Below are positions 7,261-47,797 of a DNA stretch of 64,000 bases, one piece after another; position 1 is the first letter of the stretch, and each line of letters opens with the position of its first letter. The stretch lies in assembly GCA_030823955.1 (NCBI GenBank), contig JAVBYO010000006.1, forward strand, positions 6,951 to 70,950. Reading direction: 5' to 3'. The notes below the pieces were generated by a model. The model was not told the origin of the DNA and searched no databases. It worked only from the letters and a program-made list of their open reading frames with translations. Made by a program: the position numbers and the translations under genes. The stretch is from Gallionellaceae bacterium. Its GTDB lineage: Bacteria > Pseudomonadota > Gammaproteobacteria > Burkholderiales > Gallionellaceae.

Positions 7261-7336
7261 CATTACGGTGACCTGCAAACAGGTGCGCTTGCGCTACAAT
7301 GCGCGCCGTCTTTACCCACTTGAAAAGGATGGAACC

Positions 7337-7858: not shown

Positions 7859-7874
7859 ACGTCTCGACATCGAT

Positions 7875-7908
7875 AAAAAAGAGGGCTTCGTATCGAAGCC
7901 CTCTTTTC
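7875..7908. terminator. Bidirectional rho-independent terminator between cytochrome b561 and dsbB
   Basis: gagggcttc (7881-7889) pairs with gaagccctc (7895-7903). An A-run precedes the stem and a T-run follows it. Confidence 0.75.
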
Positions 7909-7965
7909 ATTTGGGGAACCGCGCTACCGTAAGCGTCAGGTTTTACCAGCAGGTCGCAACAGATT

Positions 7966-8487
7966 TCAGGATAGACGCTCTTTGCGCAGCGCGATCCCCA
8001 GCGCGGCCACCCCGAGCAACACATACCAGAGCAACGACCACTGCGGGATACCCAGGGTGAGGAAGGTCCAGCCCTTGGCGGCACATTCGCCGGAGCCGTG
8101 CATCAATTCCTGCCAGACTTCGGCCATGGGGAAATTCTCCAGCATGTAATCCAGGCCGGGGCCGCAGGCGGGAACCTGGTCTTTGGGCAGATTCTGTATC
8201 CAGATATGGCGGCTCGCCACCGCCACCCCGCCCAGTGCGGCAAGTGCGATCAGGGACGAATAGATCCAGCGCCCAACACGTCCGGCATGATGTACTGCCG
8301 CGAGCAGAAACAACAGGCCGATACCGATGAAGATGAAACGCTGCACCATACACAGCGGGCAAGGCTCTTCGTGCAGGATATATTGCAGAGCCAGCGCCGC
8401 GCAGAACAATCCGGCGACAACTCCCGCCCCAGCCAGGTACAGCCAGCGCGCCGAGGTGTCTTGCCACAATCGCAGTATCTTGTTCAT
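7966..8487 (-). CDS. dsbB: Disulfide bond formation protein B
   Basis: EEPCPLCMVQR (CxxC in the first periplasmic loop) and four TM helices. ATG at 8487 is preceded by GGAGGAG. Confidence 0.85.
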   Translation of the reverse strand: MNKILRLWQDTSARWLYLAGAGVVAGLFCAALALQYILHEEPCPLCMVQRFIFIGIGLLFLLAAVHHAGRVGRWIYSSLIALAALGGVAVASRHIWIQNLPKDQVPACGPGLDYMLENFPMAEVWQELMHGSGECAAKGWTFLTLGIPQWSLLWYVLLGVAALGIALRKERLS

Positions 8488-8504
8488 CTCACTCCTCCAC
8501 CCGA

Positions 8505-8699
8505 TCAATCCGCTTCATCTATCCATGCGGACTGGATCGCTTCCAGTACCTTTTCGCCACCACGGTGATGATCGTCATCGAAACCGTCCAGATCAACCAC
8601 CAAGTTGTGCAGGTCGACAAAACGAATGGTCTTGGGGTCGATGTCGGTATGTTTCTCCGACAGCAGGATCGCGATCTCGCGCACATCGGTCCATTTCAT
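8505..8699 (-). CDS. iscX: Fe-S assembly protein IscX
   Basis: 64-aa acidic protein (MKWTDVREIAILL...DLHNLVV.LDGFDDD) in the last position of the isc operon. Confidence 0.85.
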   Translation of the reverse strand: MKWTDVREIAILLSEKHTDIDPKTIRFVDLHNLVVDLDGFDDDHHRGGEKVLEAIQSAWIDEAD

Positions 8700-11720: not shown

Positions 11721-11828
11721 CTATGCGTTCTCGTCAAAAACCAAAACAGATTCAGCCTCGGATGGGCGCGAATACCCACTGATAAAACATCCTTGAGAAT
11801 CCGTGTTCATCCGTGGCTAATGAATTTT

Positions 11829-33637: not shown

Positions 33638-35151
33638 ACACCCCGCTTAAAGTTAACGCTTTTGTCTGGAGCGACAAGCTGGCCACCGGCATCGACGAGG
33701 TGGATGATCAACATCAACGTCTGGTACAGCTCCTCAACGAGGTTGGCAGCATGTGTGCCGAGGGGGCGGACAGCAGCCGCATCAAACCCGTACTTGATGA
33801 ATTGGTGCGCTACGCGGTGTATCACTTCGATACCGAAGAACAGATGATGCGACAGTATGCGGTGAGTGAGGCACATCAAAGCAGCCACCTAAAAGCGCAC
33901 GACGATTTCCGCAAGCAGGTGTCGCTGGCGGTCGGCATCATCCAGACCGCACCGCAAAATTCGATGAATCTGCTGGGTCAATTGCTGGAGTATCTCTCGC
34001 GCTGGCTGCTGCAACACATCATGGTGGTGGATAAACGCATGGCCAAGGAAGTGCAGGCATTAAAAGCCGGTGCCAGCCCTGATGAGGCAACTGCGCAAGC
34101 TGTGGCGACGGTCTCCCGCACTGGTGACGTCATGCTGGAAGCCTTGAATTCGCTGTACAGCAAGATCGGCGAACAGACAGTGGAGGTGTTGCAGACCAAT
34201 CAGGCGCTGGAGATGGAGCGCGCCGCATTGCACAAACTGAACGAGGAACTGGAGCAGCGCGTCAGCCAGCGCACCGCCTCACTGGAGAGCGCCAACCAGC
34301 AACTGCTCCAGAACAATCTCGAACTCAAGCAACTGAACCTAAAACTCTCCACGACACAAAACCAGTTGCTGCAATCGGAAAAGATGGCATCCATCGGGCA
34401 ACTGGCAGCGGGCGTGGCGCACGAGATCAACAATCCCATCGGCTTCGTGAATTCTAATCTGGGCACGCTGGAAAAATACATCTCCGATCTGAGCCGGGTG
34501 CTGGCGAGCTACGAACGTGCCGAAGCGACCACCGGCACACAGCTTGCCGAGATCGAAGTGATCAAACGCGAGGTCGATCTGCCTTACCTGTTGAACGATA
34601 TCCCGAACCTGCTCAAGGAATCGCAGGACGGACTGGCCAGGGTCAAACGCATCATTCAGGATCTGCGCGATTTCTCCCATGTGGACGAAGCCAACTGGCA
34701 ACGCGCGAATCTTGAGCATTGCCTGGATAGCACTCTGAATGTGGCCTGGAACGAGATCAAATACAAGGCCGAGGTCAAAAAAGAATATGCCGGGCTGCCG
34801 GATATCGAGTGTATGCCCTCGCAGCTCAACCAGGTGTTCCTCAACCTGCTGGTCAACGCTGCCCAAGCCATCGAAGGCAAAGGTGTCATCACCCTGCGCA
34901 CCGGCGTAAAGGCGGGGGAGGTATGGGTGGAGGTCGCCGACACCGGCAAAGGCATCCCCGCCCAACATCTGGATCAGATATTCGATCCTTTTTTCACCAC
35001 CAAACCGGTCGGACAGGGAACGGGCTTGGGCTTGTCGGTCTCCTACGGCATCGTGCAAAAACACGGCGGCCATATCGAGGTGCGCAGCGAGCCTGGCAAA
35101 GGCACTTCCATGCGTGTGTATCTACCCATCGAACGTACGGCGGAGCAATGA
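33634..35151 (+). CDS. Bacteriohemerythrin-fused sensor histidine kinase
   Basis: N-terminal [22 protein letters not shown]...YHFDTEE...HDDF...[12 protein letters not shown] (hemerythrin His/Glu/Asp ligand pattern), a coiled coil, H-box [13 protein letters not shown], and HATPase motifs [26 protein letters not shown] overlap with the upstream gene. Confidence 0.85.
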
Positions 35152-35152
35152 C

Positions 35153-36919
35153 ATGAACGAACCGACCAACGATCTGTTGCGGCTGGAGAACCAGTTCAAC
35201 TTTCTGCTGCGCTTCGCCAACGACATCATCCTGTTGATGGATGCCGACGGCAATATCCTGGAAGCCAATGATGTGGCGGTAAACACCTACGGCTGGCCGC
35301 TGGAACAACTGCTCACCCTCAATATCCGTGAACTGCGCGATCCAGCCACTCTGGACGAGATGCAAAAACAACTCAAGCTGACCGCCGAGACCGGTGCCCT
35401 GTTCGAGACCCGGCACAAACGCCGCGACGGCACGATCTTTCCGGTCGAAGTGAGCAGCCGCCTGTTCGAGCACGAAGGCAACACCTACCGGCAAAGCATC
35501 GTGCGCGACATCACCGAACGCCACAAGATGCAGAGCAAACTGGCGCGCGATGCCATTCGTTTCGAGGGCTTGCTGAAGCTCAACGAAGTCGCCACGCAAC
35601 TGCCCGAGAAAGAGTTCATGCAGTTTGGTTTGGAGTGGGTCGAACGCCTTACCGGCAGCAAAATCGCCTTCATCCATTTCGTCAATGACGATCAGGAGAG
35701 CATCGAGCTGGTAGCCTGGTCGGCCGCGACCCGGGAAAAATATTGCACCGCCGCTTACGACGACCACTACCCCGTCTCCCAGGCAGGCATCTGGGCGGAC
35801 TGTCTGCGCCAGCGCCGGCCGGTCACCTTTAACGACTATGCCAACTATCCGGACAAACACGGCCTGCCGGAAGGCCACTCCGAACTCAAACGCCTGATCA
35901 GTGTGCCTGTTATCGAGGGGGAGAAAGTGCGAGTGATCTTGGGCGTGGGCAACAAAGACAGTGATTACGACGACGAGGATATCGAGATTGCCCGCCTGTT
36001 CGGCAACGACATGTGGCGCATCATCCATCGCCTGCGCCTGGAAAGCGAGCTGAAGCTCAACCTCGAACAGCAGCGCGCACTGAACAAACAACTGGAAGAA
36101 GCGCAGAGCCACTTGCTGCAATCGGAAAAGATGGCCTCGCTCGGCCAACTGGCGGCCGGTGTCGCCCACGAGTTGAACAACCCCATCGGCTTCGTGTATT
36201 CCAACATGGGCACACTGGAGAGTTACCTGAACGACATCTTCGCCATCAATGCAGCCTATGAGGAAGCCGAACTCACCGTCGGCGACAGCTGCCCCGCGCT
36301 GGATCATGTGGTGAAACTGAAACACGAGAAAGACTACGACTACATCAAACAGGACATCTTCCAACTGATGGCGCAGTCCAAAGACGGCCTGTCACGGATG
36401 CGCAAGATCGTGCAAGACCTCAAGGACTTCTCCCATGTGGGCAACGAAGGCTGGAAGTGGGCCGACCTGCACAAGGGACTCGATTCCACACTGAACATCG
36501 TGTGGAACGAGCTGAAATACAAATGCCAAGTGAACAAAGAATACGGCACCTTGCCGGAGATCTACTGCATCGCCTCGCAGATCAACCAGGTGTTCCTCAA
36601 CCTGCTGGTCAACGCTGCCCAGGCCATCGAGACCAAGGGCATTATCACCCTGCGTACCGGGATAAAAAACGAGGAAGTGTGGGTGGAGATTACCGATACC
36701 GGCAAGGGCATCCCGCCGGAACAGATCAACCGCATCTTCGATCCGTTCTTCACCACCAAACCGGTCGGGGTGGGAACCGGCCTCGGCCTGTCACTTTCCT
36801 ACGGCATCATGCAGAAGCATCAGGGGCGTATCGAAGTGACCAGCGAGGTCGGCAAAGGTACGACTATGCGACTGCATCTCCCCGTCAAGCCGAAGAGCAC
36901 TCCCTCCGGCAACAACTAG
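35153..36919 (+). CDS. PAS-GAF sensor histidine kinase, paralog of the hemerythrin kinase core
   Basis: PAS (ILLMDADGNILEAN..), GAF (IAFIHFVNDDQES..SVPVIEGEKV), H-box AAGVAHELNNPIG, and [25 protein letters not shown] lies 1 nt after the previous stop codon. Confidence 0.9.
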   Translation: MNEPTNDLLRLENQFNFLLRFANDIILLMDADGNILEANDVAVNTYGWPLEQLLTLNIRELRDPATLDEMQKQLKLTAETGALFETRHKRRDGTIFPVEVSSRLFEHEGNTYRQSIVRDITERHKMQSKLARDAIRFEGLLKLNEVATQLPEKEFMQFGLEWVERLTGSKIAFIHFVNDDQESIELVAWSAATREKYCTAAYDDHYPVSQAGIWADCLRQRRPVTFNDYANYPDKHGLPEGHSELKRLISVPVIEGEKVRVILGVGNKDSDYDDEDIEIARLFGNDMWRIIHRLRLESELKLNLEQQRALNKQLEEAQSHLLQSEKMASLGQLAAGVAHELNNPIGFVYSNMGTLESYLNDIFAINAAYEEAELTVGDSCPALDHVVKLKHEKDYDYIKQDIFQLMAQSKDGLSRMRKIVQDLKDFSHVGNEGWKWADLHKGLDSTLNIVWNELKYKCQVNKEYGTLPEIYCIASQINQVFLNLLVNAAQAIETKGIITLRTGIKNEEVWVEITDTGKGIPPEQINRIFDPFFTTKPVGVGTGLGLSLSYGIMQKHQGRIEVTSEVGKGTTMRLHLPVKPKSTPSGNN

Positions 36920-38097: not shown

Positions 38098-40770
38098 ATG
38101 ACAAAGACACACAGCAAAACTCTCGCGCATGACGCGACCAGCGAGAAGCAGACCCCAATGATGCAGCAATATCTGCGCATCAAGGCGGAACACAGCGACA
38201 AACTGCTGTTCTATCGCATGGGCGACTTCTATGAACTGTTCATGGACGATGCAGTGCGCGTCGCCAAGCTGCTCGACATCACCCTCACTCAGCGTGGCGC
38301 CTCCAACGGCCAGCCCATCAAGATGGCGGGAGTGCCCTATCACGCGGCGGAACAATACCTCGCACGACTGGTGAAGATGGGTGAATCGGTCGCCATCTGC
38401 GAGCAGATCGGCGACCCCGCCACCAGCAAAGGCCCGGTCGAACGCAAAGTCATGCGCATCGTCACCCCCGGCACCGTCACCGATTCCGCCCTGCTGGAAG
38501 AGAAACACGACAATCTGCTGCTCGCCCTGCACCGGCGCAACAACGAAGTCGGCCTCGCCTGGCTCAACCTCGCCTCCGGCCAGTTCACCCTCGCCGAAGT
38601 CGCTGCCAAACAACTGCCCGCCGAACTGGAACGCTTGCAACCATCCGAGATACTGTTCGCTGAAAGCACGACTGCGCCGCAGTTCAAGAACGCCGCCAAC
38701 AAATCCCTGCCCGACTGGCACTTTGACCGTGACACCGCGCATCGTGCGCTGTGCCAGCAGTTCGGCACGCGCGACCTCGCCGGATTCGGCTGCGACGAGT
38801 TCACTCTCGGCCTCGAAGCTGCCGGGGCTTTGCTCGGCTACGCCAAGCTGACGCAGGGCCAGAGCATCGCCCACATCCGCAGCGCACAGGTGTACCACGC
38901 CGACGAATTCGTACGCATGGATGCCGCCACCCGCCGCAACCTGGAGATCACCCAGACCCTGCGCGGCGAACCCGCGCCGACATTACTCTCGCTACTCGAC
39001 ACCTGCGCCAGCAACATGGGTAGTCGTCTGTTAGCGCATTGGCTGCATCATCCGCTGCGGGATCGCGCTGCATTGGGCGCAAGACTGGAAGCCGTCGAAC
39101 AACTGCTGTCACCTCCCTCGCCCTCTGGGAGAGGGATTGAGGGTGAGGGAACACATGTTGAGGTACGCACAGAGCGTCCCCTCACCCCAGCCCTCTCCCA
39201 GAGGGCGAGGGAGCTTTACCCCCAAGTCCACGACCACCTAAAACCCAGCGTAGACGTGGAACGCATCACCGCCCGCATCGCGCTGCGCAGTGCAAGGCCG
39301 CGCGACCTTTCCGGCCTGCGCGACACACTTAAACAACTGCCCGCATTACATAAGCTGCTGGCCGATGTGAGCGCGCCGCGCATCAGGCGACTCACCGCAC
39401 AACTGCAAGCCGACGCCGCGCTAGTCGAACTGCTGCAAAAGACGCTGAAGGAAGAACCCTCCTCCGTGCTACGCGAAGGCGGCGTCATCGCCGACGGTTT
39501 CGATTTCGAACTGGATGAGTTGCGCGGCATCCAGACCAACTGCGGCGATTTTCTGCTGGAACTGGAGATCCGTGAACGCGCACGCACCGGCATCGACAAA
39601 CTCAAGGTCGAATACAACCGCGTACACGGCTTCTACATCGAGGTGAGTTTTGCCAATGCCGACAAGGTGCCCGCCGACTACCGCCGCCGCCAGACGCTGA
39701 AAAACGTCGAGCGTTACATCACACCGGAACTCAAAGCGTTCGAAGACAAAGCACTCTCCGCCAACGACCGCGCACTGGCGCGTGAGAAGTTGCTTTACGA
39801 CCAGTTACTGGATGCACTCGCACCGTTCATTCCGCAATTGCAAGACATCGCCGCCGCCATCGCCGAACTGGACGTACTTGCCACCTTCGCCGAACGCGCG
39901 ACCACGCTCAACTTCAGCGCGCCGCGTTTCAGCAACGATGCGCAGCTCGTCATCAAGCAAGGCCGTCATCCGGTTGTGCAAGCGCAAGTGGAACAGTTCA
40001 CCCCCAACGACGCCACGCTCAACGACGCGCGCCGCATGTTGCTCATCACCGGCCCCAACATGGGCGGTAAATCGACCTACATGCGCCAGGTTGCCATCAT
40101 CGCGCTGCTCGCGCATGTCGGCTGCTTCGTGCCTGCACAGGAAGCGGTGCTGGGCGAGATCGACCAGATCTTTACCCGCATCGGCGCATCGGATGACTTG
40201 GCCAGCGGACGCTCCACCTTCATGGTCGAGATGACCGAGGCCGCCAACATTCTGCACAACGCCACCGATAAGAGCCTAGTGCTGGTGGACGAGATCGGGC
40301 GCGGCACCAGCACCTTCGACGGGCTCGCCCTCGCCTACGCCATCGCGCGCCACCTGCTGGACATCAACCGCAGCTATACATTATTTGCCACGCACTATTT
40401 CGAACTCACGCGCTTGGCCGAAGAATTCAAACAACTCGCCAACGTCCACCTCGCCGCCGTCGAGCACCAGCACACCATCGTCTTCCTGCACAGCGTCAAC
40501 GAAGGCGCCGCCAGCCAGAGCTACGGCCTGCAAGTCGCCGCCCTCGCGGGTGTGCCGAACAGCGTCATCCGCAACGCGAAAAAACAATTAGTGAAGCTGG
40601 AACAGAACAGCGCCGCGCAAAATCCGCAGGGCGACCTGTTCGCTGCCGTGCCGGAAACGCCGCAGCCGGAAGAACATCCGCTACTGTCGGCGCTACGCGA
40701 TCTGCAGCCGGATGAGATGAGTCCGAAGGAAGCACTGGAGAGGATTTATCAATTAAAGAAGCTGGCGTAG
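38098..40770 (+). CDS. mutS: DNA mismatch repair protein MutS
   Basis: [18 protein letters not shown], Walker [19 protein letters not shown]. 890 aa, including an in-frame repeat-derived insertion. Confidence 0.95.
39115..39211. repeat. 97-bp palindromic REP/MITE-like element inserted in frame within mutS
   Basis: Arms ccctcgccctctgggagagggattgagggtgaggg (39115-39149) and ccctcaccccagccctctcccagagggcgaggg (39179-39211). The first 21 nt are perfectly complementary. It translates as [35 protein letters not shown]. Confidence 0.85.
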
Positions 40771-40785
40771 GAAGGATATCTGGCC

Positions 40786-42087
40786 GTGGAAGAATTTAAA
40801 GCACATGAAGTGAGAAACTGCTTTCTAATTCTCTCAAAAGCCAAAAGCCCTTCTGATTCGGTTCTTGCCTGGACTGTTTTGCAGAAGCAGTATCCACACT
40901 TAAGTGCTATGGTGTCATTAGAAGAATATCCCAAGGAAGCCGTCCCATACTCGATAAAAAAATATACAAAAAAGCCAGATAAATATTTGGTTCCCTATTT
41001 CTCGTCTTCAAATATCTATTTCCTCGGTGACTCATTATTGACCGACATGTTTTCTGTGGATGAAGCGAAGATCAAAGTGGACTACTCTTTAATGTTCGAC
41101 ACGAATCTTGCAAGTTATATAAACAAACTCGCAAGAGGAGAGCCGCTCGGTAATATTCAGAATCAAGTAGTTTCTCTGATTGATAGCATCCTGCAGGACA
41201 ACCTGAATTTCGATCATCTGTTTTACATGGTAGAGAACGCAAAAAATGTTCCCCTCTTAGATTCAAACCACCACTCCAAAATCTCTTTTTGGCGCGCTCT
41301 AAACAAAGACTTTAGGCGAAACATGGTGAGTCTTCAGGTATTCAGTAGCATTGATTGCCAAGAATATAAACGAACGTCATTCCCAAAACCTCAAGCCAAC
41401 TACAAAGAAGCTGCGCGAAGGGCTATCAATTTCTGCTATGACTTCTATGCATCAGAAATCGGGAAGGACCATATTTCCGAATTTTTTCTTCTGCAACGTC
41501 TCTTATTGCTTCAGCTATTAGGTATGTTGAGAATTCAGCTCTCAACAAACAAAAGTGTGAAAAACAAGATGAAAGATTATTTCGCCTTTATCCACGAGGA
41601 GGTTGGCGCCTATTTTGATAGAGAGTCAATGATCGCACATAAATATTTCAGCGACAGAAACGAGATAGAAGTTCTCGAGAAAATTAAAAAGGGAATGTGC
41701 ACAACTCGTTTGCTAAAGAAATTAGACAACATAGCTTGGGACATGGCTGCGCCCCGATTCATGGAAAAGCTAATGAGCACAGGGGGGCAAGGAGATTATT
41801 TCGTGCCATTCTTTCTCACATTTGATAAGGGCCTACGTGATCTACTATCAGCCTATCGTGTAAAAGGTGTGATTATCAACAAAGGCAAGGGGCAACTAAT
41901 TCCAATTCCAGAAGTATCTACCTATGAATATTTTGTAAATCAAGGCTTCAAAGATGAGATCGAATATTTTTTTAGCGACCGCGTAAAAAACGAACGTCTC
42001 ACTCGTCCTAAGCCAAACAGAACTAGCATTCATGAAAAAATCCGTAACGAATATGCCGCGCTAAAGAGGGCATTAACGAACCAATAA
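40786..42087 (+). CDS. Hypothetical 433-aa protein, strongly AT-rich, no family recognised
   Basis: Long uninterrupted ORF in AT-rich DNA, where random stop codons are frequent. GTG start has GGAAGGA 9 nt upstream. One hand-counted line at 40801-40860 has 21/60 G+C, versus 44/60 in mutS line 40501-40560. Confidence 0.6.
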   Translation: MEEFKAHEVRNCFLILSKAKSPSDSVLAWTVLQKQYPHLSAMVSLEEYPKEAVPYSIKKYTKKPDKYLVPYFSSSNIYFLGDSLLTDMFSVDEAKIKVDYSLMFDTNLASYINKLARGEPLGNIQNQVVSLIDSILQDNLNFDHLFYMVENAKNVPLLDSNHHSKISFWRALNKDFRRNMVSLQVFSSIDCQEYKRTSFPKPQANYKEAARRAINFCYDFYASEIGKDHISEFFLLQRLLLLQLLGMLRIQLSTNKSVKNKMKDYFAFIHEEVGAYFDRESMIAHKYFSDRNEIEVLEKIKKGMCTTRLLKKLDNIAWDMAAPRFMEKLMSTGGQGDYFVPFFLTFDKGLRDLLSAYRVKGVIINKGKGQLIPIPEVSTYEYFVNQGFKDEIEYFFSDRVKNERLTRPKPNRTSIHEKIRNEYAALKRALTNQ

Positions 42088-42088
42088 G

Positions 42089-42113
42089 AACTAAAGGAGT
42101 CAGCTTCGCATTT
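42089..42113. repeat. Island boundary repeat copy R1
   Basis: aACTAAAGGAGTCAGCTTCGCATTT begins 2 nt after the stop codon of the 433-aa ORF. Confidence 0.7.
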
Positions 42114-42163
42114 CAGCCCCTGTGACAGGTACAACAATCAGGGCAATAACTAGAACGCCGATT

Positions 42164-42919
42164 TCACGCCACCTTATGAAACTTTAATAAATCACGCATG
42201 AGATATCTAATTTCCAAATTCATTTCTGGAAATATTTTTCCCCACAAAAAACCAATTAACGATTGAGTCAGCATCACGAAACCAAAAAGAAGCGCGACAT
42301 AAAACAATAAAAAAAATGTAAGTAATGGCGTCAAACCTTCGTAGAAGGCAAATACATTAGCAATACCTGCCCCCTCCTTACTCGAAAGCACAATAATCGA
42401 AGAAAACAACATGATTAAAAGCGCATTAATTCTCGGCTTAGAGTCCGGATTGTAAATATACAGATGCAGCTGAGAAAGTGTCCTGCTCAGGGGTGGCCTC
42501 AACATTTCTTGCAGCTCCAGTACCTTATTAATATCTTGAGCAAGCGAGAGATATTCGTTCTCTGCTTTCCCAATATTTACGCGCAAGAATTGTCGTTTAC
42601 ACATGTCAATATCTAAGAATCTATTCTGACAATACATGTTGGAATATTGTCTATTAAATTTCTTCAAAATCGTTTTCCTCCTATCTTCCTTTGCTTTTTC
42701 AAGAGCGAAAAGTCCCACTAGCTCTAACACCATAAGAGGCCAGATTAAATTTCTTTTCGCTTCAATATCATTAAAGGCAAATATCGAAAAAAATGTATAT
42801 AGGCCAACAACAAAGAACGCTAACCAAGCGAGAAGAGACACCCACGTCGGCATATTTCGCCAATCGTTCTTTTCAAATTCAACGTAATAGTCTTTTGCCT
42901 GTCTTGAAATATTTTCCAT
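42164..42919 (-). CDS. Hypothetical 251-aa membrane protein, AT-rich, no family recognised
   Basis: ATG start. Two N-terminal and about three C-terminal hydrophobic helices flank a charged central segment. Long ORF in AT-rich DNA. Confidence 0.6.
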   Translation of the reverse strand: MENISRQAKDYYVEFEKNDWRNMPTWVSLLAWLAFFVVGLYTFFSIFAFNDIEAKRNLIWPLMVLELVGLFALEKAKEDRRKTILKKFNRQYSNMYCQNRFLDIDMCKRQFLRVNIGKAENEYLSLAQDINKVLELQEMLRPPLSRTLSQLHLYIYNPDSKPRINALLIMLFSSIIVLSSKEGAGIANVFAFYEGLTPLLTFFLLFYVALLFGFVMLTQSLIGFLWGKIFPEMNLEIRYLMRDLLKFHKVA

Positions 42920-42961
42920 AGATACACCCTTGCTTGTGCTGCGCCCTTAAGGATACCGTCG

Positions 42962-42985
42962 GCTATAAAGGTTAGCCTCGCGTTT
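42962..42985. repeat. Island boundary repeat copy R2
   Basis: GCTATAAAGGTTAGCCTCGCGTTT, 43 nt upstream of the 251-aa ORF ATG. Confidence 0.65.
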
Positions 42986-43003
42986 CTTCTAGCCACCTCT
43001 CAA

Positions 43004-43027
43004 GCTAAACGGGTCAGCCTCGCAATT
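43004..43027. repeat. Island boundary repeat copy R3
   Basis: GCTAAACGGGTCAGCCTCGCAATT. Confidence 0.7.
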
Positions 43028-43053
43028 ACCCCCAGCATCCAATCACGCACCAC

Positions 43054-43076
43054 GAGTAGCCTCTTGCCGCAAGTCA
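43054..43076. repeat. Degenerate repeat copy R4
   Basis: gagTAGCCTCttgcCGCAAgtc aligns with the GTCAGCCTCGCAATT core with an insertion. Confidence 0.35.
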
Positions 43077-43111
43077 TTGGAATAATCGGGGACAGACTAC
43101 GGTTTCTCGGA

Positions 43112-43135
43112 GCTAAAACGGGAATCCTGAAGATG
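43112..43135. repeat. Degenerate repeat copy R5
   Basis: GCTAAAACGGGAATCCTGAAGATG keeps the GCTAAA-CGGG half only. It overlaps the hairpin aaaacgg/ccgtttt, 33 nt from the kinase-like gene stop codon. Confidence 0.45.
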
Positions 43136-43167
43136 TCCGTTTTGTTTGATGCCGTATAGCGCGCCGC

Positions 43168-43869
43168 TCACTCCTTCTGCAACCTCGCCGCCATATCCGC
43201 TTTGCGCGCGACCATCTTCTCGGCCAGCGCGTGGCTGCCGCCGTGGTCTAGGATGACCTTGCGTATCTGCTCGTCCGGCATCTGCACCACTTTCATGATG
43301 GCCTGATCGATCTCGTCGCGCCGCATGCCGGCGAACAGTCTGGCTGCATGGAAGTTGCCTTCGTCGTTGCGCAACATGTCGAGTTCGTCCACGCGGGTGC
43401 CGAAGGCTTTGCCCTTGGGGTCGCCGTGTGCGCGGTAGGCCAATGCACCGCCCACGTCTAGCGTGAGCACTTGGCCGTTGGCGACACCCTGGTTGTCACC
43501 GTCGAAACCGGCAGCATCCCAGTTCGCAGTCCAGGCATGCACGCCCAGCCATTGTTGTGCCTGTTTGCGTTCGCCTGGGCTGAGGTGCGCGACACGTTTT
43601 TTATCCAGCACCACCCACTCGGTCGCGATCTGGTCTGGCGCTTGTGTGGGCACATAGCTCAGGGTCGGCGCGCCTGCCAGTTGGTAAAGCTTGGCGGCGA
43701 TCATTTCGTTGCGCGCATGGGCGGCGGATTCCAGCGTCTTTACGTAGTAGCGCCGCCCGCTGTCATCTTCAAAGATACCGGCAGGGTTGCTGCCCAGTTG
43801 CCCGCCGACGCGGTGCAGGGTGGTGGTGTCGATAGGTGCGATGTCCATCGTCATGCCCGGCTGATTCAT
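43168..43869 (-). CDS. Putative atypical (PI3/PI4-kinase-like or minimal protein-kinase-like) kinase, 233 aa
   Basis: Ordered kinase-like motifs: Gly-rich GGQLGSNPAG, YYVK, NEMIAAKLY, catalytic-loop-like NWDAAGFDGDNQGV, DFG-like LDVGGAL. ATG at 43869 overlaps the upstream stop codon (ATGA). The longer ORF to 44151 lies in the overlap frame of the phosphatase gene. Confidence 0.5.
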   Translation of the reverse strand: MNQPGMTMDIAPIDTTTLHRVGGQLGSNPAGIFEDDSGRRYYVKTLESAAHARNEMIAAKLYQLAGAPTLSYVPTQAPDQIATEWVVLDKKRVAHLSPGERKQAQQWLGVHAWTANWDAAGFDGDNQGVANGQVLTLDVGGALAYRAHGDPKGKAFGTRVDELDMLRNDEGNFHAARLFAGMRRDEIDQAIMKVVQMPDEQIRKVILDHGGSHALAEKMVARKADMAARLQKE

Positions 43870-44420
43870 GGCAGGGGCACGGTGCGGCGCACCAAGGCGA
43901 GTTGTGCGGGCGTTTCGATTGCGCCCTTGCGCACATGACGTACGGCATGGATCGCCGCTTCCGGCTCCATGCCCAGCTCGACGAGCAGCCGGGCGGCCAT
44001 CATGCCCGCCCGGCCCAGCCCGCCCTTGCAATGCACGAGCACATCTTCGCCGTTGCGCAGCATCTCGCGTATGGCGCGGCCTTGCGTCAGCCATTCTTCT
44101 TCGAATTTTTTGCCCGGCACTGAGAAGTCGGCAATGGGCAGGTGACACCACTTTATGCCGCGCTGGTGTATCTCATGCCCGAGCTGCGGCACTTTCAGGG
44201 CGATGAGTTCGGCAGGTTCCACCAGAGTCAGCACCAGCTTCGCGCCCCATGCGGCGATGGCATCCAGGTCGATGCCGAGGTCGCGCTCCCACGCGCCGGT
44301 GTGCGCGAAATGGTCATGCTTGCCCGGGCAGAAGGTGATGCCGATGCGCCCATGTGCTGGACTCGCACGGACTTCGGCGATCTGGAGCGGGTGAGTGTGG
44401 CTGGTTCGTACGGTTGCCAT
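43866..44420 (-). CDS. Cys-based protein phosphatase (dual-specificity/CDKN3-like fold)
   Basis: P-loop VHCKGGLGRAG (HCx5R) with an upstream general-acid-type LPIADFSVP. ATG at 44420; the ORF-track start at 44426 is a TTG. Confidence 0.8.
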   Translation of the reverse strand: MATVRTSHTHPLQIAEVRASPAHGRIGITFCPGKHDHFAHTGAWERDLGIDLDAIAAWGAKLVLTLVEPAELIALKVPQLGHEIHQRGIKWCHLPIADFSVPGKKFEEEWLTQGRAIREMLRNGEDVLVHCKGGLGRAGMMAARLLVELGMEPEAAIHAVRHVRKGAIETPAQLALVRRTVPLP

Positions 44421-44450
44421 CGTCAATCTCGGTGAATCGGTGAATACGTA

Positions 44451-44474
44451 GCTAACGGGATCAGCTTCGAATTT
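44451..44474. repeat. Island boundary repeat copy R6
   Basis: GCTAACGGGATCAGCTTCGAATTT. A partner segment aagct-cgcgtcagc (44487-44500) can pair with it, giving an attC-like bulged hairpin. Confidence 0.7.
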
Positions 44475-44477
44475 GCT

Positions 44478-44807
44478 TTACGTCCAAGCTCGCGTCAGCA
44501 GTTCATCCATCGCAGCAGTGATTCGGTCGCCCTCTTGTGCAAGCGTGGTGACCTTTTCGCCTAGCTGATCAATGGCGATAGATACCACCTCTAACGGGTG
44601 CAATACCACTTCGACACCCTCGACCACAAATACCGGATTCAGCGCCGCTCCAACCACTGCTGCGGCATTATCAAGGTTGCTACGGCGCACCAAAGGAATC
44701 ACGACTCGGCGGCGGTAACTGTCAAACAGGGAAGATTGAACGATGACAACATAGGGAATTGCTTCCCGCTGTTTTCCGATGTTCCGGTGAACGTCGAACT
44801 GTGCCAT
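44478..44807 (-). CDS. ccdB: Type II toxin CcdB (gyrase poison family)
   Basis: MAQFDVHRN....PYVVIVQSSLFD..RRRVVIPL is the canonical CcdB N-terminus. Confidence 0.85.
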   Translation of the reverse strand: MAQFDVHRNIGKQREAIPYVVIVQSSLFDSYRRRVVIPLVRRSNLDNAAAVVGAALNPVFVVEGVEVVLHPLEVVSIAIDQLGEKVTTLAQEGDRITAAMDELLTRAWT

Positions 44808-45010
44808 TACAGCGTGGAGTGTTGGTCTGCAAATGAGCCGGAGCGCTCGTTAAAGGCGTTCCAAGTTTGAGCTGCAACTTCCGCGCGGGTATGTGTTTTA
44901 TCTGTTGACGTCCGATTACGTGCAGAAAGAAATTCGACGAATTCAAAAACCTCCGCCTGCTTTTCGCGCGGCAACGCATCTAGTTTACTGATTAGTTCGG
45001 CGTAGCCCAT
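44807..45010 (-). CDS. ccdA: CcdA-type antitoxin with a DUF2281-like N-terminus
   Basis: The C-terminus ERSGSFADQHSTL resembles F-plasmid CcdA EMNGSFADENRDW (recalled). The N-terminus LDALPREKQAEVFEFVEFL is DUF2281-like. The stop codon overlaps the ccdB ATG (TAATG). Confidence 0.65.
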   Translation of the reverse strand: MGYAELISKLDALPREKQAEVFEFVEFLSARNRTSTDKTHTRAEVAAQTWNAFNERSGSFADQHSTL

Positions 45011-45137
45011 TACACACCCCGCTTGAGTTGAACGACGGGGGAAGTATAACCTGCGGAGGTAAGGCTTGCTATTGCCTTGCCCTCCGTCCCGCCCCTGTGT
45101 AAATTGCCGTATCTCCATCGATCACGGATTCGTAAAA

Positions 45138-45347
45138 ATGACTGCCGCTACCGTTTCCAGCAAATTCCAAATCTCCATTCCCAAAGAGGTGCGCGAGGCC
45201 ATGCACATCGAGCCGGGACAACAATATGAGTTCATTCCGATGGGGTCTATTATTCAACTCACGCCCAAGACTTCTATCAAGGAATTGCGCGGCATTGCGC
45301 TTGGGGCGAGTCCTGAAAAATATCGCGACCGCAAGGATCGCGCCTGA
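45138..45347 (+). CDS. AbrB/MazE/SpoVT-family antitoxin (VapB-like), orphan
   Basis: SSKFQISIPKEVREAMHIEPGQQYEF is the looped-hinge-helix signature. 69 aa. Confidence 0.75.
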   Translation: MTAATVSSKFQISIPKEVREAMHIEPGQQYEFIPMGSIIQLTPKTSIKELRGIALGASPEKYRDRKDRA

Positions 45348-45370
45348 TGTTTCTGGAGAGCAATAGGTGA
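45347..45370 (+). pseudogene. 7-codon remnant of the cognate PIN/VapC-type toxin
   Basis: The ATG overlaps the antitoxin TGA (TGATG), the usual vapBC junction. It reads MFLESNR-stop, compared with the common VapC start M-h-L-L-D-T-N. Confidence 0.3.
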
Positions 45371-45417
45371 CGTACCACGGCTTCCAATCAACCCGTTATC
45401 GCCATTCATCCGAGCAA

Positions 45418-45440
45418 CTAATAGGGGCACCTTCGCACTT
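45418..45440. repeat. Island boundary repeat copy R7
   Basis: CTAATAGGGGCACCTTCGCACTT, 13 nt from the DUF3301 stop codon. Confidence 0.55.
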
Positions 45441-45452
45441 CCTTACGCGCCC

Positions 45453-45770
45453 TCACTCCAATATCTGATACGGCTCCAGCGTGACCGATTCGACACGCTC
45501 ACCGAGCATGATGATCCCCCCTTCTCTTCGGCTATTGCCCGTTTCGGTGAATTCAAAGCGATAGGTGCGGCGCAGTACGCGGCGGCCGGATGAATCACGA
45601 TCAAGTGCGAGGCTGGTACTAGCGACGGTGTCATCGAGAAATTGCAGCTCTGCTCTGCGGCAGGTTTGTCTGCCCGCATCGCGTGCGATCTCCAGGATGC
45701 GGATGCTGTGCAGCCAGAACCATCCCAAGGCGATGATGGCTAGCAGTGCGAGTAAGCTCAAGATGTCCAT
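45453..45770 (-). CDS. DUF3301 family protein
   Basis: N-terminal TM helix, then W.W...R..E.A......C....LQFLDDTV......L.R...G...L.R.Y.FEF, as I recall for DUF3301. Confidence 0.7.
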   Translation of the reverse strand: MDILSLLALLAIIALGWFWLHSIRILEIARDAGRQTCRRAELQFLDDTVASTSLALDRDSSGRRVLRRTYRFEFTETGNSRREGGIIMLGERVESVTLEPYQILE

Positions 45771-45778
45771 TTTGGTTT

Positions 45779-45810
45779 GCTATCTAACGGGGACTGGATT
45801 CTAACTTGCC
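45779..45810. repeat. Degenerate repeat copy R8
   Basis: GCTATCTAACGGGGACTGGATTCTAAC. On the minus strand it contains GTTAGAT and GTTAGAA core-like motifs. Confidence 0.35.
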
Positions 45811-45940
45811 GTTGAACTACAAGCTTGTTTCGCAAGCTATTGGGATCGGATCCACAATTAGTTTCACCTCCCGCTTAATACCTCTACTGCCAGTACCCAT
45901 TTTTATTGCCCAACCATAAGCGTAGGATATTCAGCACGGT

Positions 45941-45960
45941 GGGCGGCACATCTGCCGCCC
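45941..45960 (+). terminator. Terminator-like hairpin inside the leader of the 76-aa ORF
   Basis: gggcggca-catc-tgccgccc (8-bp GC stem) followed by gttctgttcttt. Confidence 0.3.
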
Positions 45961-45993
45961 GTTCTGTTCTTTAATCATTTTAAGGAGGCGATC

Positions 45994-46224
45994 ATGAAAA
46001 CAGCCGATATGATGATTTATGTGCATCCCGATCTGGATGCGACAAAGAGGATGGATATGGAAAGAAGTCTGGCCGGGCGCATCGGTGTGGATTGTGCGGA
46101 GTTTGAACATCGTCCGCATCCGCATGCGCTGATGGTGAAATACGATCCGGACTCGATCAAGGGTATGGATATCCTGCAGATGGTACGCAAGCTCGATCCT
46201 GCCGCTTCGATGGTGGGCATGTGA
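45994..46224 (+). CDS. Hypothetical 76-aa protein
   Basis: Strong AAGGAGG 6 nt upstream of the ATG. No family recognised. Confidence 0.6.
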   Translation: MKTADMMIYVHPDLDATKRMDMERSLAGRIGVDCAEFEHRPHPHALMVKYDPDSIKGMDILQMVRKLDPAASMVGM

Positions 46225-46226
46225 CA

Positions 46227-46250
46227 GCTAAAGGAGCCAGCTTCGCATCG
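46227..46250. repeat. Island boundary repeat copy R9
   Basis: GCTAAAGGAGCCAGCTTCGCATCG begins 3 nt after the 76-aa ORF stop codon. It pairs with gcgatgtaagttgacc (46265-46280). Confidence 0.7.
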
Positions 46251-46309
46251 CCCTCACTCCCCCAGCGATGTAAGTTGACCGTCCAACCATTTCATTTCAA
46301 TTGAACACC

Positions 46310-47797
46310 ATGCCCACCCAAGACCCCAGCACCGGCCTGCGTCTAGATAACCAGTTCGCCCGCGAGGTGCAAGGCATGTATGTGCGCTGGCAACCCGAGC
46401 CAGCACCTGCACCGCGCTGGCTGCAATTCAACGATGCACTGGCTCAGGAACTGGGGCTGGAGGCACAGGCATTGCGTGGTGATGCGGGGCTGGCGGTGTT
46501 TTCCGGTCAGCGCGTACCCGATGGCGCAGAGCCAGTGGCGCAGGCTTATGCCGGTCACCAATTCGGGTATTTCTCGCCGCGTCTGGGGGATGGCCGCGCC
46601 TTGTTGCTGGGCGAGATCGTCGATCCCTCTGGGCAGCGTTTCGATCTTGCGCTGAAGGGTTCCGGCCCCACGCCTTTTGCGCGTAACGGTGACGGCAAAG
46701 CGGCGGTCGGGCCGGTGCTGCGTGAGTTCATTGTCGCCGAAGCGATGCATGCGCTGGGTGTGCCGACGACGCGGGTGCTGGCGGCAGTGGCTACCGGCGA
46801 GTCGGTGCGACGTGAAAGAGCCTTGCCCGGCGCGGTGCTCGCGCGCGTAGCTGCCAGCCATCTGCGCGTGGGCAGTTTCGAATATGCGGCACGTACCAAA
46901 GATGCCGCGTTGCTGGGCCGCCTTGCCGAGCATGCCATCGCGCGCCACGCGCCGCATTTGCAAGGCCAGCGGCAGCGCCATCTGGGTTTGCTGGAGCAGG
47001 TGGTGGAGCGTCAGGCAAGTTTGATCGCGCAGTGGATGGGGCTGGGTTTCATCCACGGTGTGATGAACACCGACAATATGACCATCTCCGGCCAGACCAT
47101 AGACTACGGGCCGTGCGCGTTCATGGAGCATTTCGATCCCGAGGAGGTGTTCAGTTCGATCGACCACGATGGGCGCTATGCTTGGGCCAACCAGTCTGCC
47201 ATCGCACACTGGAACCTTTCCCGTCTGGCCGAGACGCTGTTGCCGCTGCTCGACGATGATGCGGAGCGCGCGGGCGCACTGGCGATGGCAACCATCGGGA
47301 AATTCGATACGCATCTGTCGGAACACTGGTCTGCGTTGCTGCGCAGCAAGGTCGGGCTGCCGGACGGTGCGGATGCGGCAGATCGCCTCGCCACCGAATT
47401 TCTACATCTAATGCAACGCCACGAAGTGGACTACACGCTGGGCTGGCGTCGGCTGGGCGATGCAGCCGCCGGAGACGAAGCGCCGCTGCGCGCAGTGTTC
47501 GGCGCGCATGCTGCCGCGCTGGATGATTGGCTTGCACGCTGGCGCGCGCTGTTCGGCACCGTGCCGGGCGTCGAGCGCGCACGTGCGATGGCCGAGGTGA
47601 ACCCTATGGTCATTCCGCGCAACCATCTAGTCGAGCTGGCGCTGGAGGCAGCCACCGACTACGACGACCTTGGCCCGTTCGAGCGGCTACTGGCCGAAGT
47701 GCGCCGACCGTTCGAGTCGCGCGATGACGCTAACCCTTACATCCAGCCCGCGACGCGCGAAGAGACTGCCAACTACCATACTTTCTGCGGAACCTGA
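46310..47797 (+). CDS. selO: Protein adenylyltransferase SelO (YdiU/UPF0061)
   Basis: [35 protein letters not shown] motifs. I prefer the ATG at 46310 to the TTG at 46301. Confidence 0.9.

Follow-up and report, generated by a model that had tools for sequence, protein, structure and literature searches.

We describe here a compact unit of two overlapping genes on the minus strand of a 64,000-nucleotide stretch of Gallionellaceae DNA, which we refer to as the window. The upstream gene (43866..44420) encodes a Cys-dependent phosphatase of the dual-specificity/Tyr type with 184 aa counted from its ATG, and the downstream gene (43168..43869) encodes a kinase-like protein of 233 aa that belongs to an unannotated family. 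Both open reading frames are present as originally predicted, and so is their junction: the plus strand reads TCAT at 43866..43869, which is ATGA on the coding (minus) strand, and hence the stop codon of the phosphatase gene overlaps the start codon of the kinase gene. Judged from the sequence, this overlap is expected to couple the translation of the two genes. An alternative TTG start of the phosphatase frame is found at 44426. A small bicistron with overlapping genes and the phosphatase in first place corresponds to the layout of type II toxin-antitoxin systems. Scanning the repeat-bounded unit for promoters and terminators gave nothing above chance.

The unit is bounded by repeats on the plus strand, as had been proposed: CTAAACGGGTCAGCCTCGCA (43005..43024) lies on the 3' side of the kinase gene and CTAACGGGATCAGCTTCGAA (44452..44471) on the 5' side of the phosphatase gene, so that the pair is enclosed by these two copies. 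The repeat CTAANNGRNNCAGCYTCGNA occurs at 42091, 43005, 44452, 45418 and 46228, always on the plus strand, with one further site at 11743 that carries 2 mismatches (6 matches versus 0.33 expected; no shuffle reached 6). Flanked by mutS (38098-40770) and selO (46301-47797), both on the plus strand, a mosaic variable island (40771..46300) comprises five repeat-delimited units. The phosphatase/kinase pair occupies one of these cassette-like units and adjoins real toxin-antitoxin genes. GC content is 0.39-0.40 at 41-43 kb and rises to 0.62 over the pair. Families recognised in the island and its flank are CcdB, DUF2281, MazE-like, DUF3301 and SelO. The neighbouring ccdAB unit named in the original prediction is thus half correct: CcdB was found (6e-26), but its upstream partner is of the DUF2281 type and not CcdA. 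The supposed vapB is actually an orphan MazE/AbrB-type antitoxin. In a Gallionellaceae MAG (L005) the pair and a MazE-like unit also lie beside mutS, in a different order. We rejected a reading of the repeats as attC sites of integron cassettes because no hairpin, Rfam match, tRNA/tmRNA fragment or integrase was identified nearby: the repeat flanks fold no better than shuffles (z -0.3 to +1.7) and had no match in an Rfam search, no tRNA or tmRNA fragments were found, and no integrase was among the ORFs identified at 36.5-47.8 kb, where the largest two of the island, with 433 and 251 aa, have no assigned family.

The upstream product is clearly an HCx5R Cys-phosphatase with an acid-loop Asp, as its motifs had suggested. 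Its catalytic loop HCKGGLGR (residues 130-137 with C131 and R137; 44010-44033, minus strand) is retained in 69 of 71 loci, the other two having truncated copies. In the acid loop PIADFSVP (residues 95-102; 44115-44138, minus strand) D98 of PIADF aligns with the PIPDF of archaeal-type PTPs. Three Pfam families match above their cut-offs, namely Tc-R-P (49.4 bits versus 27; 7e-13), PTP-SAK (44.3 bits versus 27; 2.5e-11) and CDKN3 (35.3 bits versus 20.7; 1e-8). DSPc stays just under its cut-off (32.4 versus 33.5), and PTP-NADK (‘DSP-PTPase phosphatase fused to NAD+ kinase’) matches at 6e-5, under the family threshold. The nearest solved chains are archaeal PTPs (5z59 and 9e9l, about 3e-14), followed by SsoPTP, PRL and KAP. 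With its HCx5R loop, acid-loop Asp and above-threshold profiles the protein therefore belongs to the Cys-based PTP/DSP enzymes of the rhodanese-phosphatase superfamily. Pfam assigns only phosphatase families to the 184 residues (about 46-180), and no DNA-binding or autoregulatory domain was found in them.

The kinase-like protein had no match in Pfam, NCBIfam, PADLOC or PHROG, and PDB sequences gave nothing significant whether the query was the protein alone or a profile of its family; an N-lobe match to Legionella LepB (4jw1) was seen at E=0.25. An AF2 model built from a diverse alignment (pLDDT 94.1, pTM 0.91), which replaced a run on 24 close homologues with a disordered catalytic loop (pLDDT 71), shows a bilobal protein-kinase-like fold with a helical C-lobe. 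Foldseek returned 318 PDB matches at E≤1e-3 for this model, and all 50 of those listed are kinase-fold proteins (TM 0.33-0.58). CtkA was the best among the matches listed (TM 0.57), which further include RioK1, Bud32, Mps1, APH and HipT, while phage proteins in BFVD match at TM 0.79-0.86. All motifs quoted for the two proteins were found again. In the kinase-like protein these are, on the minus strand, the Gly-rich loop GGQLGSNPAG (residues 22-31; 43777-43806), K44 of YYVK (residues 41-44; K44 at 43738-43740), E55 of NEMIAAKLY (residues 54-62; E55 at 43705-43707), the catalytic loop HAWTANWDAAGFDGDN (43492-43539) with D118, D125 and N126, the last of which ends FDGDN, and D138 of LDVGGAL (residues 137-143; 43441-43461). 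K44, E55, D118, N126 and D138 are invariant in alignments of 22 and of 56 diverse family members, and each motif is preserved in 67-71 of the 71 loci. Their roles as beta3 Lys, alphaC Glu, catalytic Asp, Asn and metal-binding Asp were assigned by order and predicted secondary structure, without superposition. After the DFG-like Asp, R146, G149 and K152 of a conserved basic segment, RAHGDPKGKAFG (43399-43434, minus strand), are invariant in phage and cellular members alike; E162 and R222 are likewise conserved. The catalytic loop itself is atypical, with NWD...DN (HAWTANWD...DN) at a spacing of 8 residues and no HRD. Taken together, the model confidently predicts a compact, catalytically complete protein-kinase-like enzyme, in agreement with the kinase fold originally read from the sequence. 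The assignment as atypical is equally borne out, since the protein is nearer to CtkA, Rio, Bud32, HipT and VPS34 than to any Hanks Pfam model, with no Pkinase or PK_Tyr_Ser-Thr match at E≤1. Membership in the HipA family can be set aside: the window protein has no HipA_C match and its partner is a phosphatase, and among 56 relatives a single one showed a weak HipA_C match (4.6e-5).

In all 70 bacterial loci fetched the phosphatase gene lies directly upstream of the kinase gene, and the same holds for the deepest-branching cellular relative (P0121), so that the pair is strictly co-conserved. Both genes form one fused ORF with both active sites kept in 24 of the 70 loci (about a third), and where the genes are separate, their aligned segments almost always lie within about 50 nt of each other. 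The fused forms carry the NCBI name ‘cyclin-dependent kinase inhibitor 3 family protein’. For classical toxin-antitoxin pairs, such fusion in about one genome out of three is unusual. The cellular copies form a monophyletic clade with kinase+ART and NUDIX+kinase proteins as its nearest relatives, and this clade came up once more when homologues were searched a second time with a diverse profile. The kinase is 60-96% and the phosphatase 68-94% identical across Alpha-, Beta- and Gammaproteobacteria, Desulfobacter and one Bacteroidota MAG, values that broadly track taxonomy. Such high identity in step with taxonomy suits a physiological function under constraint better than a gene in an arms race. 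The pair moves between genomes as a single module. Its GC content follows that of the host (r = 0.90) with a median excess of 4 points; over its flanks the excess reaches up to 14.5 points in low-GC hosts, and as a test for recent transfer this deviation is ambiguous.

In other genomes the immediate surroundings are mixed, with 115 Pfam families for 134 neighbours. Association with mobile or defence islands had been named as a check together with co-occurrence of the two genes; the pair does co-occur throughout, but the 25 commonest neighbour families contain no recognisable defence or mobile-element family. GGDEF proteins account for 8 of the 134 neighbours, probably by chance as the domain is abundant. 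A conserved third gene was not found apart from draG-draT, an adjacency that the original prediction had missed: draG-draT lies tail-to-tail with the phosphatase/kinase gene, 0-60 nt away, in 11 loci of Alphaproteobacteria that represent no fewer than three orders (Rhodobacterales, Hyphomicrobiales and Acetobacterales), and this gene is fused in 11 of 11. In non-alphaproteobacterial loci draT, draG, nifH and PII are absent within 6 kb of the pair, no nifH or PII gene adjoins the pair within 6 kb in any locus, and the 64-kb window holds no draT or draG homologue.

Also overlooked was the kinship of the kinase with phage effector domains, which form a very large family and are linked to NUDIX and ADP-ribosyltransferase (ART) domains. 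The family has 4,169 representatives (50%-identity clusters) at E≤1e-3 and 843 at E≤1e-30, and the best 150 of the 4,169 matches are mostly proteins of 800-7,000 aa. Outside the cellular clade its members are domains of multi-domain phage effector proteins, typically in the order NUDIX, kinase, ART, as in P0179, where all three are found in one protein of 815 aa. These proteins are often fused to or encoded beside head-assembly proteins. A scan of 56 members found ADPrib_exo_Tox in 26, NUDIX in 16, DUF2213 in 10 and Phage_portal_3 in 8. The kinase domain is present in cultured phages, where NUDIX genes lie near the kinase-bearing gene; Pseudomonas phage Jeremy and Dolphis are examples of phages with the domain in a polyvalent protein. 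In a phage-like plasmid it lies inside the head-assembly module. The phosphatase is part of only one of the 150 best family representatives, and that one is a cellular fusion. A tblastn search of 50,697 phage records returned no phosphatase homologue, and the phage forms of the kinase thus appear to be unopposed. The viral contigs of IMG/VR yielded no close relative. For this family of more than 4,000 clusters there is no model in Pfam, NCBIfam, PHROG or PADLOC. Large, unmodelled and located in phage effectors with ART and NUDIX domains, it probably constitutes a major class of unstudied phage-delivered host-modifying enzymes.

Such effectors are phage polyvalent proteins (Iyer et al. 2017, PMC5512222; Iyer et al. 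2022, PMC9503650): at 30-55% identity, relatives of the kinase sit inside phage proteins of 500-7,000 aa beside portal, NUDIX, DUF2213 and ART domains, some of them in head-assembly modules. The kinase described here is a free-standing cellular protein with a phosphatase as its partner. Iyer et al. in 2017 (PMC5512222) noted a kinase clade, mainly from Verrucomicrobia, Chlamydia and Bacteroidetes, that lacks the whole C-terminal subdomain and has a Glu before strand 2, a Gln in the last N-lobe strand and a catalytic His-Asp insert. The H111-x6-D118 spacing of our protein fits this insert, and Q80 is conserved in the pair clade only. The present domain, which keeps a helical C-lobe in the AF2 model, may belong to that clade or to a separate family.

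As kinase and phosphatase are always adjacent or fused in bacterial genomes, they can be expected to work as one unit, and it is likely that they write and erase phosphate on a common substrate. The kinase-like protein would most likely transfer the gamma-phosphate of ATP to a conserved cellular target, and the phosphatase would most likely remove this phosphate and possibly also phosphate on the kinase itself. Since every cellular copy of the kinase has the phosphatase upstream or fused to it, we read the phosphatase as a built-in antidote or eraser of a kinase that would be harmful if left unopposed. Our best explanation, although we hold it with slightly less than even confidence, is that the translationally coupled operon forms an obligate antagonistic pair with poison-antidote logic. 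Similarly, it might be that the writer/eraser unit is no housekeeping switch but a module of the poison-antidote or conflict kind, and this we consider about as tentative, if not a little more so. The logic would be of the DarTG/KKP type, without a labile DNA-binding antitoxin. Our analysis shows the two folds with their catalytic residues, the strict co-inheritance and frequent fusion of the genes, the monophyly of the cellular clade and its relationship to phage proteins, while we infer the shared substrate, the toxicity of the kinase alone, a trigger and any role in defence; a toxin-antitoxin or defence function of the pair is putative. Neither protein matched PADLOC-DB v2 at E≤1, a library of 2023 that predates KKP. 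In distinction to type II systems the unit has no DNA-binding, autoregulatory antitoxin that acts by binding, and in the 24 fused loci both activities reside in one polypeptide.

Could the unit instead be a physiological switch, neither selfish nor defensive, in which a resident enzyme with kinase and phosphatase activity, similar to AceK or HprK/P, is connected with arginine ADP-ribosylation? Its target might then be a conserved host protein or the DraT/DraG-NifH circuit. The frequent fusion of kinase and phosphatase and the very high conservation, which partly follows taxonomy, would suit such a switch, and the short distance of the fused gene to draG-draT in alphaproteobacteria hints at a physiological link. 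We also counted in its favour that Methylomonas, Chromatiaceae, Zoogloea, Methylocapsa, Rhodopila, Rhodovulum, Bradyrhizobium and Desulfobacter are hosts, which by genus name we take to be known diazotrophs or phototrophs. However, the convergent fused gene and draG-draT are not co-transcribed, neighbourhoods are otherwise unconserved, and the circuit genes are missing near the pair outside alphaproteobacteria and, as far as draT and draG are concerned, from the window. Both proteins are moreover bare catalytic domains with no sensor or regulatory module. The fusion of phage relatives to arginine-type ART (26 of 56) and NUDIX (16 of 56) would again point to ADP-ribosylation, but ART is the commonest enzymatic domain in polyvalent proteins generally (PMC9503650), and the ART counts may therefore reflect the base rate alone. 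On balance we regard a regulatory switch as less likely than the poison-antidote reading, yet as a serious rival to it. Less probable still is a nucleotide or sugar-phosphate substrate such as NAD+, ADP-ribose, a related nucleotide or a protein-bound ADP-ribosyl group, by comparison with the fusions of DSP phosphatases to NAD kinases. The sub-threshold PTP-NADK match of the phosphatase, the recurrent NUDIX, kinase and ART architectures with NUDIX genes near the kinase gene in phages, and the published coupling of rhodanese-phosphatase-superfamily phosphatases to ADP-ribosylglycohydrolases in >55% of one host-system class (PMC9503650) are consistent with it, and the invariant R146, G149 and K152 would fit an invariant anionic substrate. 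Yet the phosphatase is nearest to solved protein phosphatases (archaeal PTPs, PRL and KAP), the folds closest to the kinase are mostly protein kinases among the matches listed, and the invariant E162-R222 resembles, as far as the alignment tells, the APE-Glu/Arg pair of protein kinases.

Kinase-fold enzymes with chemistry other than phosphorylation exist, and the downstream protein might be a pseudokinase or an enzyme that performs AMPylation like SelO or glutamylation like SidJ, in which case the phosphatase would not reverse its product. The atypical NWD...DN loop with its 8-residue spacing and missing HRD and the absence of a close solved relative (best PDB match at TM 0.57) leave some room for this. 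Against it, the full canonical set of beta3 Lys, alphaC Glu, catalytic Asp, Asn and metal-binding Asp is invariant, and phosphate chemistry is the simplest explanation for a protein that is always paired with or fused to a phosphatase; we consider this reading highly improbable. Only marginally better, in our estimate, are the prospects of a more specific idea, in which the kinase would add phosphate to the ADP-ribosyl group that an ART attaches, or to the ADP-ribosylated site, and thereby make the modification resistant to DraG-type hydrolases, with the Cys-phosphatase as the eraser that restores reversibility. In phage effectors the Alt/VIP2-like domains fused to the kinase would take the part of this ART, and in diazotrophs DraT. 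This idea would unite the NUDIX-kinase-ART architectures, the draG-draT adjacency, the coupling of phosphatases to ADP-ribosylglycohydrolases and the invariant basic segment, and, if true, it would add a new layer to nitrogenase regulation and to phage-host conflicts over ADP-ribosylation. The cellular two-gene or fused unit offers a small and tractable entry point to the substrate of the kinase family.

Several known systems share single traits with the pair. Archaeal PTPs (TkPTP, SsoPTP), PRL/PTP4A and KAP/CDKN3 have the same HCx5R loop, acid-loop Asp and small DSP-like size, but neither they nor Tc-R-P, PTP-SAK and PTP-NADK proteins have been reported paired with the present kinase-like family. 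The fusion of a DSP phosphatase with a kinase has a precedent in PTP-NADK, whose partner, however, is an NAD kinase with a fold unrelated to our protein. DarT-DarG, the analogy drawn in the original prediction, also consists of an enzymatic toxin that is reversed by an enzymatic antitoxin. There DNA ADP-ribosylation is reversed by a macrodomain, a chemistry unrelated to that proposed here, and there is no homology to the present pair. CtkA of H. pylori, the best structural match to the kinase model, and HipT, also among the structural matches, belong with HipA to the small atypical kinases of bacteria, of which HipA and HipT serve as toxins in toxin-antitoxin systems. The pair differs from HipA, HipT and CtkA in that a HipA_C match and a HipB/HipS partner are absent and the catalytic loop is NWD...DN. 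No Hip family has been reported with a phosphatase partner (PMC8262856).

The closest parallel in logic is KKP, a phosphorylation-based, antiphage toxin-antitoxin system of Pf prophages formed by the kinases PfkA and PfkB and the phosphatase PfpC (PMC11341870). The claim that no such system had been described hence has to be narrowed: kinase/phosphatase defence logic has been published as KKP, while the composition of a Cys-PTP and this kinase family was not found in the libraries and literature that we searched. These contain no description of the pair or of the kinase domain, although an earlier mention among the phosphatase clades of Burroughs and Aravind 2023 (PMC10034599) is possible. In KKP, a toxic kinase is neutralised enzymatically by a co-encoded phosphatase within a compact module, the same logic as proposed here. 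KKP has three parts, with Hanks-type kinases (PF00069) that bear CSD or FHA-type extensions and a PP2C phosphatase (PF13672), and is prophage-borne, whereas the present unit has two parts or is fused and combines an atypical kinase family with a Cys-based HCx5R phosphatase, its function being predicted. As two Pkinase kinases and a PP2C phosphatase are not what we find, the families differ and only the logic is comparable. If the poison-antidote or defence reading of the pair is true, the logic of KKP extends to unrelated protein folds.

Both open reading frames of the predicted pair lie on the minus strand, the phosphatase gene (43866-44420; 184 aa counted from the ATG) upstream of the kinase-like gene (43168-43869; 233 aa). 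The plus-strand bases TCAT at 43866-43869 spell ATGA on the coding strand; the phosphatase stop thus overlaps the start of the kinase-like gene as proposed, and every motif quoted in the original prediction could be assigned residues and coordinates. The upstream product passes the Pfam thresholds for Tc-R-P (7e-13), PTP-SAK (2.5e-11) and CDKN3 (1e-8) and scores slightly under threshold for DSPc. Among solved chains it comes nearest to archaeal-type PTPs (5z59 and 9e9l, ~3e-14), SsoPTP, PRL/PTP4A and KAP, and its PIADF and HCKGGLGR align with the PIPDF acid loop and the P-loop of solved relatives. Judged from its sequence it is a small Cys-dependent enzyme of the Tyr/dual-specificity type that has no additional domain and is unremarkable within the Cys-PTP/DSP superfamily.

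The kinase-like protein matched nothing in Pfam, NCBIfam, PADLOC or PHROGs, lax thresholds included, and sequence search gave no matching solved structure. We found 745 close homologues at E<=1e-3, the best 120 of which share 74-96% identity, measure 209-256 aa and are all labelled hypothetical. A first AF2 model from close homologues only was mediocre (pLDDT 71; VPS34 among its structural matches), while a diverse alignment gave a confident one (pLDDT 94.1, pTM 0.91). Foldseek found 318 PDB matches at E<=1e-3, and the 50 listed all have a kinase fold; CtkA is on top among those listed (TM 0.57), followed by RioK1/RioK2, Bud32, Mps1, aminoglycoside and macrolide phosphotransferases and HipT. 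Tested for membership, the protein falls outside both the Hanks kinases and the HipA family and has no curated family; since no solved structure is close, we regard it as a distinct family inside the kinase-like superfamily. In diverse members K44, E55, N116-W117-D118, G121, N126 and D138 are invariant, as are G140-G141, R146, G149, K152, E162 and R222. By order and predicted secondary structure K44 would be the beta3 Lys, E55 the alphaC Glu, D118 and N126 the catalytic Asp and Asn and D138 the metal-binding Asp, with R146, G149 and K152 as a conserved basic post-DFG segment and E162 and R222 as an APE-Glu/Arg-like pair. Because the invariant residues match kinase catalytic roles, the landmarks originally named were essentially right; the modelled protein is predicted to be an active enzyme.

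When 1.84 billion representatives were searched exhaustively with a profile, 4,169 emerged as members of the kinase-like family at E<=1e-3 (843 at E<=1e-30), and in most of the best 150 of the 4,169 the ~220-aa kinase-like region is an internal domain of a protein of 800-7,000 aa. Pfam scans of 56 members sized 300-1,250 aa showed ADPrib_exo_Tox, an ADP-ribosyltransferase (ART) domain, in 26, NUDIX in 16, DUF2213 in 10 and Phage_portal_3 in 8. These domains recur in the order portal, NUDIX, kinase-like, then DUF2213 or ART, and one protein of 815 aa (P0179) unites NUDIX, kinase and ART. Cultured phages carrying the domain (29-36% identity) include Morganella phage Mecenats66, Pseudomonas phages Jeremy, Dolphis and Touem01, Aeromonas phage ST4, Yersinia phage fHe-Yen8-01 and several Gordonia phages; BFVD models of such phage proteins match at TM 0.79-0.86. 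On a Pseudomonas juntendi phage-like plasmid, a 1,466-aa carrier protein is encoded between portal/minor-head and protease/capsid genes. This head-gene placement is the signature of 'polyvalent' proteins, which have been proposed to be carried inside the virion and injected along with the DNA, in work that also mentions a truncated kinase clade (Iyer et al.; PMC5512222, PMC9503650). Some giant proteins bear several tandem kinase-like domains (five in P0123, 3,416 aa; two in P0256, 7,004 aa). Two genes downstream of the large kinase-like-domain protein, Jeremy and Mecenats66 have a gene for a 'nucleotide phosphatase' or NUDIX hydrolase (L003 7224-8072; L073 8220-8963), which parallels the NUDIX-kinase fusions.

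In a neighbour-joining tree the cellular kinase-like proteins form one clade, whose nearest outgroups are kinase+ART and NUDIX+kinase proteins. P0121 (58% identity) branches deepest within the clade, and there too the phosphatase gene comes first and overlaps the kinase gene by 8 nt. The kinase-like protein derives from the phage effector domain family. A survey of co-occurrence, proposed together with the original prediction, covered 67 loci from a scan of one genome per species plus two contigs and one plasmid; in all 70 bacterial loci, two of them being one and the same Rhodoferax contig, the phosphatase gene lies immediately upstream of the kinase gene, and the gap between the aligned segments is mostly <=50 nt. 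Identity to the window proteins is 68-94% for the phosphatase and 60-83% for the kinase. At 24 loci, one of them on the complete Rhodobacter sp. CZR27 replicon, a single ORF holds both active-site motifs; NCBI names such records 'cyclin-dependent kinase inhibitor 3 family protein'. The catalytic motifs of both enzymes are kept in 67-71 of 71 loci, the exceptions being truncated or disrupted copies. Only 1 of the best 150 representatives has the phosphatase, and it is a cellular fusion; tblastn against 50,697 phage records found no phosphatase homologues, and no close relatives of the pair were found in IMG/VR. The Cys-phosphatase and the atypical kinase, both catalytically complete and the latter predicted to be active, are inherited as one unit and often fused. 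There are also decayed copies, with the phosphatase truncated in L009 (3260-3517) and the kinase cut or frameshifted in L070 and L071 (6001-6400), so the module can be lost piecemeal.

Immediate neighbours elsewhere are heterogeneous (134 neighbours, 115 Pfam families), and the 25 commonest neighbour families listed include no recognisable defence or mobile-element family. Only draG-draT recurs as a neighbour: in 11 alphaproteobacterial loci (L004, L040, L052, L061, L062, L065-L068, L070 and L071; ~6650-8600 in each) from at least three orders, Rhodobacterales, Hyphomicrobiales and Acetobacterales, it lies tail-to-tail with the fused gene at a distance of 0-60 nt. DraG-draT controls nitrogenase through ADP-ribosylation, and many hosts of the pair are, going by genus names, presumably diazotrophs or phototrophs. 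No draT/draG homologues were found within the 64-kb window and no nifH or PII genes within 6 kb of the pair at other loci. Pair GC follows host GC (r = 0.90) at +4 points at the median and up to +14.5 in low-GC gammaproteobacteria, a pattern compatible with horizontal spread, not conclusive.

In the window, mutS and selO enclose a mosaic island of 5.5 kb whose GC ranges from 0.39 to 0.62. Besides the phosphatase-kinase pair, this island encodes DUF2281 together with CcdB, a MazE-like orphan antitoxin, a DUF3301 protein and two products that belong to no known family. Of the predicted ccdAB neighbour the CcdB toxin is present (44478-45022, minus strand; Pfam 6e-26), but its upstream partner is a DUF2281-type protein and not CcdA, an unusual antitoxin pairing for CcdB. 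The supposed vapB is indeed an antitoxin gene, but an orphan of the MazE/AbrB type (45138-45347, plus strand) with no toxin adjoining. This gene also stands next to mutS in a Gallionellaceae MAG (L005; 91% aa identity, mutS 80-88% nucleotide identity), where the pair and the MazE-like unit adjoin mutS in a different order, which marks the site as a variable hotspot and makes a related betaproteobacterium the probable source of the window. Two ORFs of GC ~0.40, of 433 aa (40786-42087, plus strand) and 251 aa (42164-42919, minus strand), each form an island unit, have no significant Pfam family and look like recent acquisitions; the 251-aa product has the appearance of a membrane protein. SelO (46301-47797, plus strand; Pfam 3e-108), a kinase-fold protein adenylyltransferase, directly borders the island and is probably a core gene whose nearness to the kinase-like gene is coincidental.

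Every unit is delimited by a 20-nt direct repeat, CTAANNGRNNCAGCYTCGNA, with five island copies in one orientation (42091-42110, 43005-43024, 44452-44471, 45418-45437 and 46228-46247); one further site elsewhere, with 2 mismatches, brings the total to 6, where chance would give 0.33. The pair is enclosed, as predicted, by the repeats at 43005 and 44452. The best copies read A[AG]CTAAAGGAG[TC]CAGCTTCGCAT, and four of the five (not 46228) lie immediately 3' of a minus-strand gene or operon. The repeats are neither hairpins nor attC sites and have no Rfam match; five unrelated metagenome contigs (L076-L080) each contain a single copy of the exact 21-mer, within or close to intergenic DNA. Elsewhere, 34357-34950 and 36104-36706 share two direct repeats (123 nt, 81% identity; 300 nt, 72%) ~1.75 kb apart, and the second copy of both falls inside the ORF of a 601-aa sensor histidine kinase (35114-36919), an arrangement suggestive of paralogous sensor genes in tandem.

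The finding itself is solid, and the biological role is inferential. The simplest inference is that the kinase would write and the phosphatase erase on a common phospho-substrate, and we consider such a shared substrate quite probable. Whether this serves poison-antidote logic, as originally proposed, is a tentative matter, though it is the reading we favour: the effector domains of phages are unopposed, whereas each cellular copy has its phosphatase; both proteins are bare catalytic domains without a sensor; the neutraliser is encoded first, with translational coupling; and the module is patchy, with variable neighbourhoods and here among toxin-antitoxin genes. Points against it are that fusions are frequent, that conservation is very high, that PADLOC has no match, that the neighbourhoods are ordinary and that the fused gene is linked to draTG, all of which would rather suit a resident regulatory switch, possibly tied to arginine ADP-ribosylation, a rival that we hold to be less likely. 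A related version, in which an NAD- or ADP-ribose-derived group would take the place of a protein side chain as substrate, seems more doubtful still. We found no description of the pair or the kinase-like domain in the papers and profile libraries consulted. The finding is larger than the original prediction realised because it points to an extensive, uncharted family of effector kinases in phages.

For the favoured poison-antidote reading, known systems offer parallels. In KKP, where a phosphatase antitoxin restrains kinase toxins, the toxins can protect against phage, the trigger being a phage protein that inhibits the phosphatase (PMC11341870). The pair would have its logic in common with KKP and with DarTG, but the components differ from both. 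In classical type II toxin-antitoxin systems the antitoxin is DNA-binding and acts by binding, a definition that the pair does not fit.
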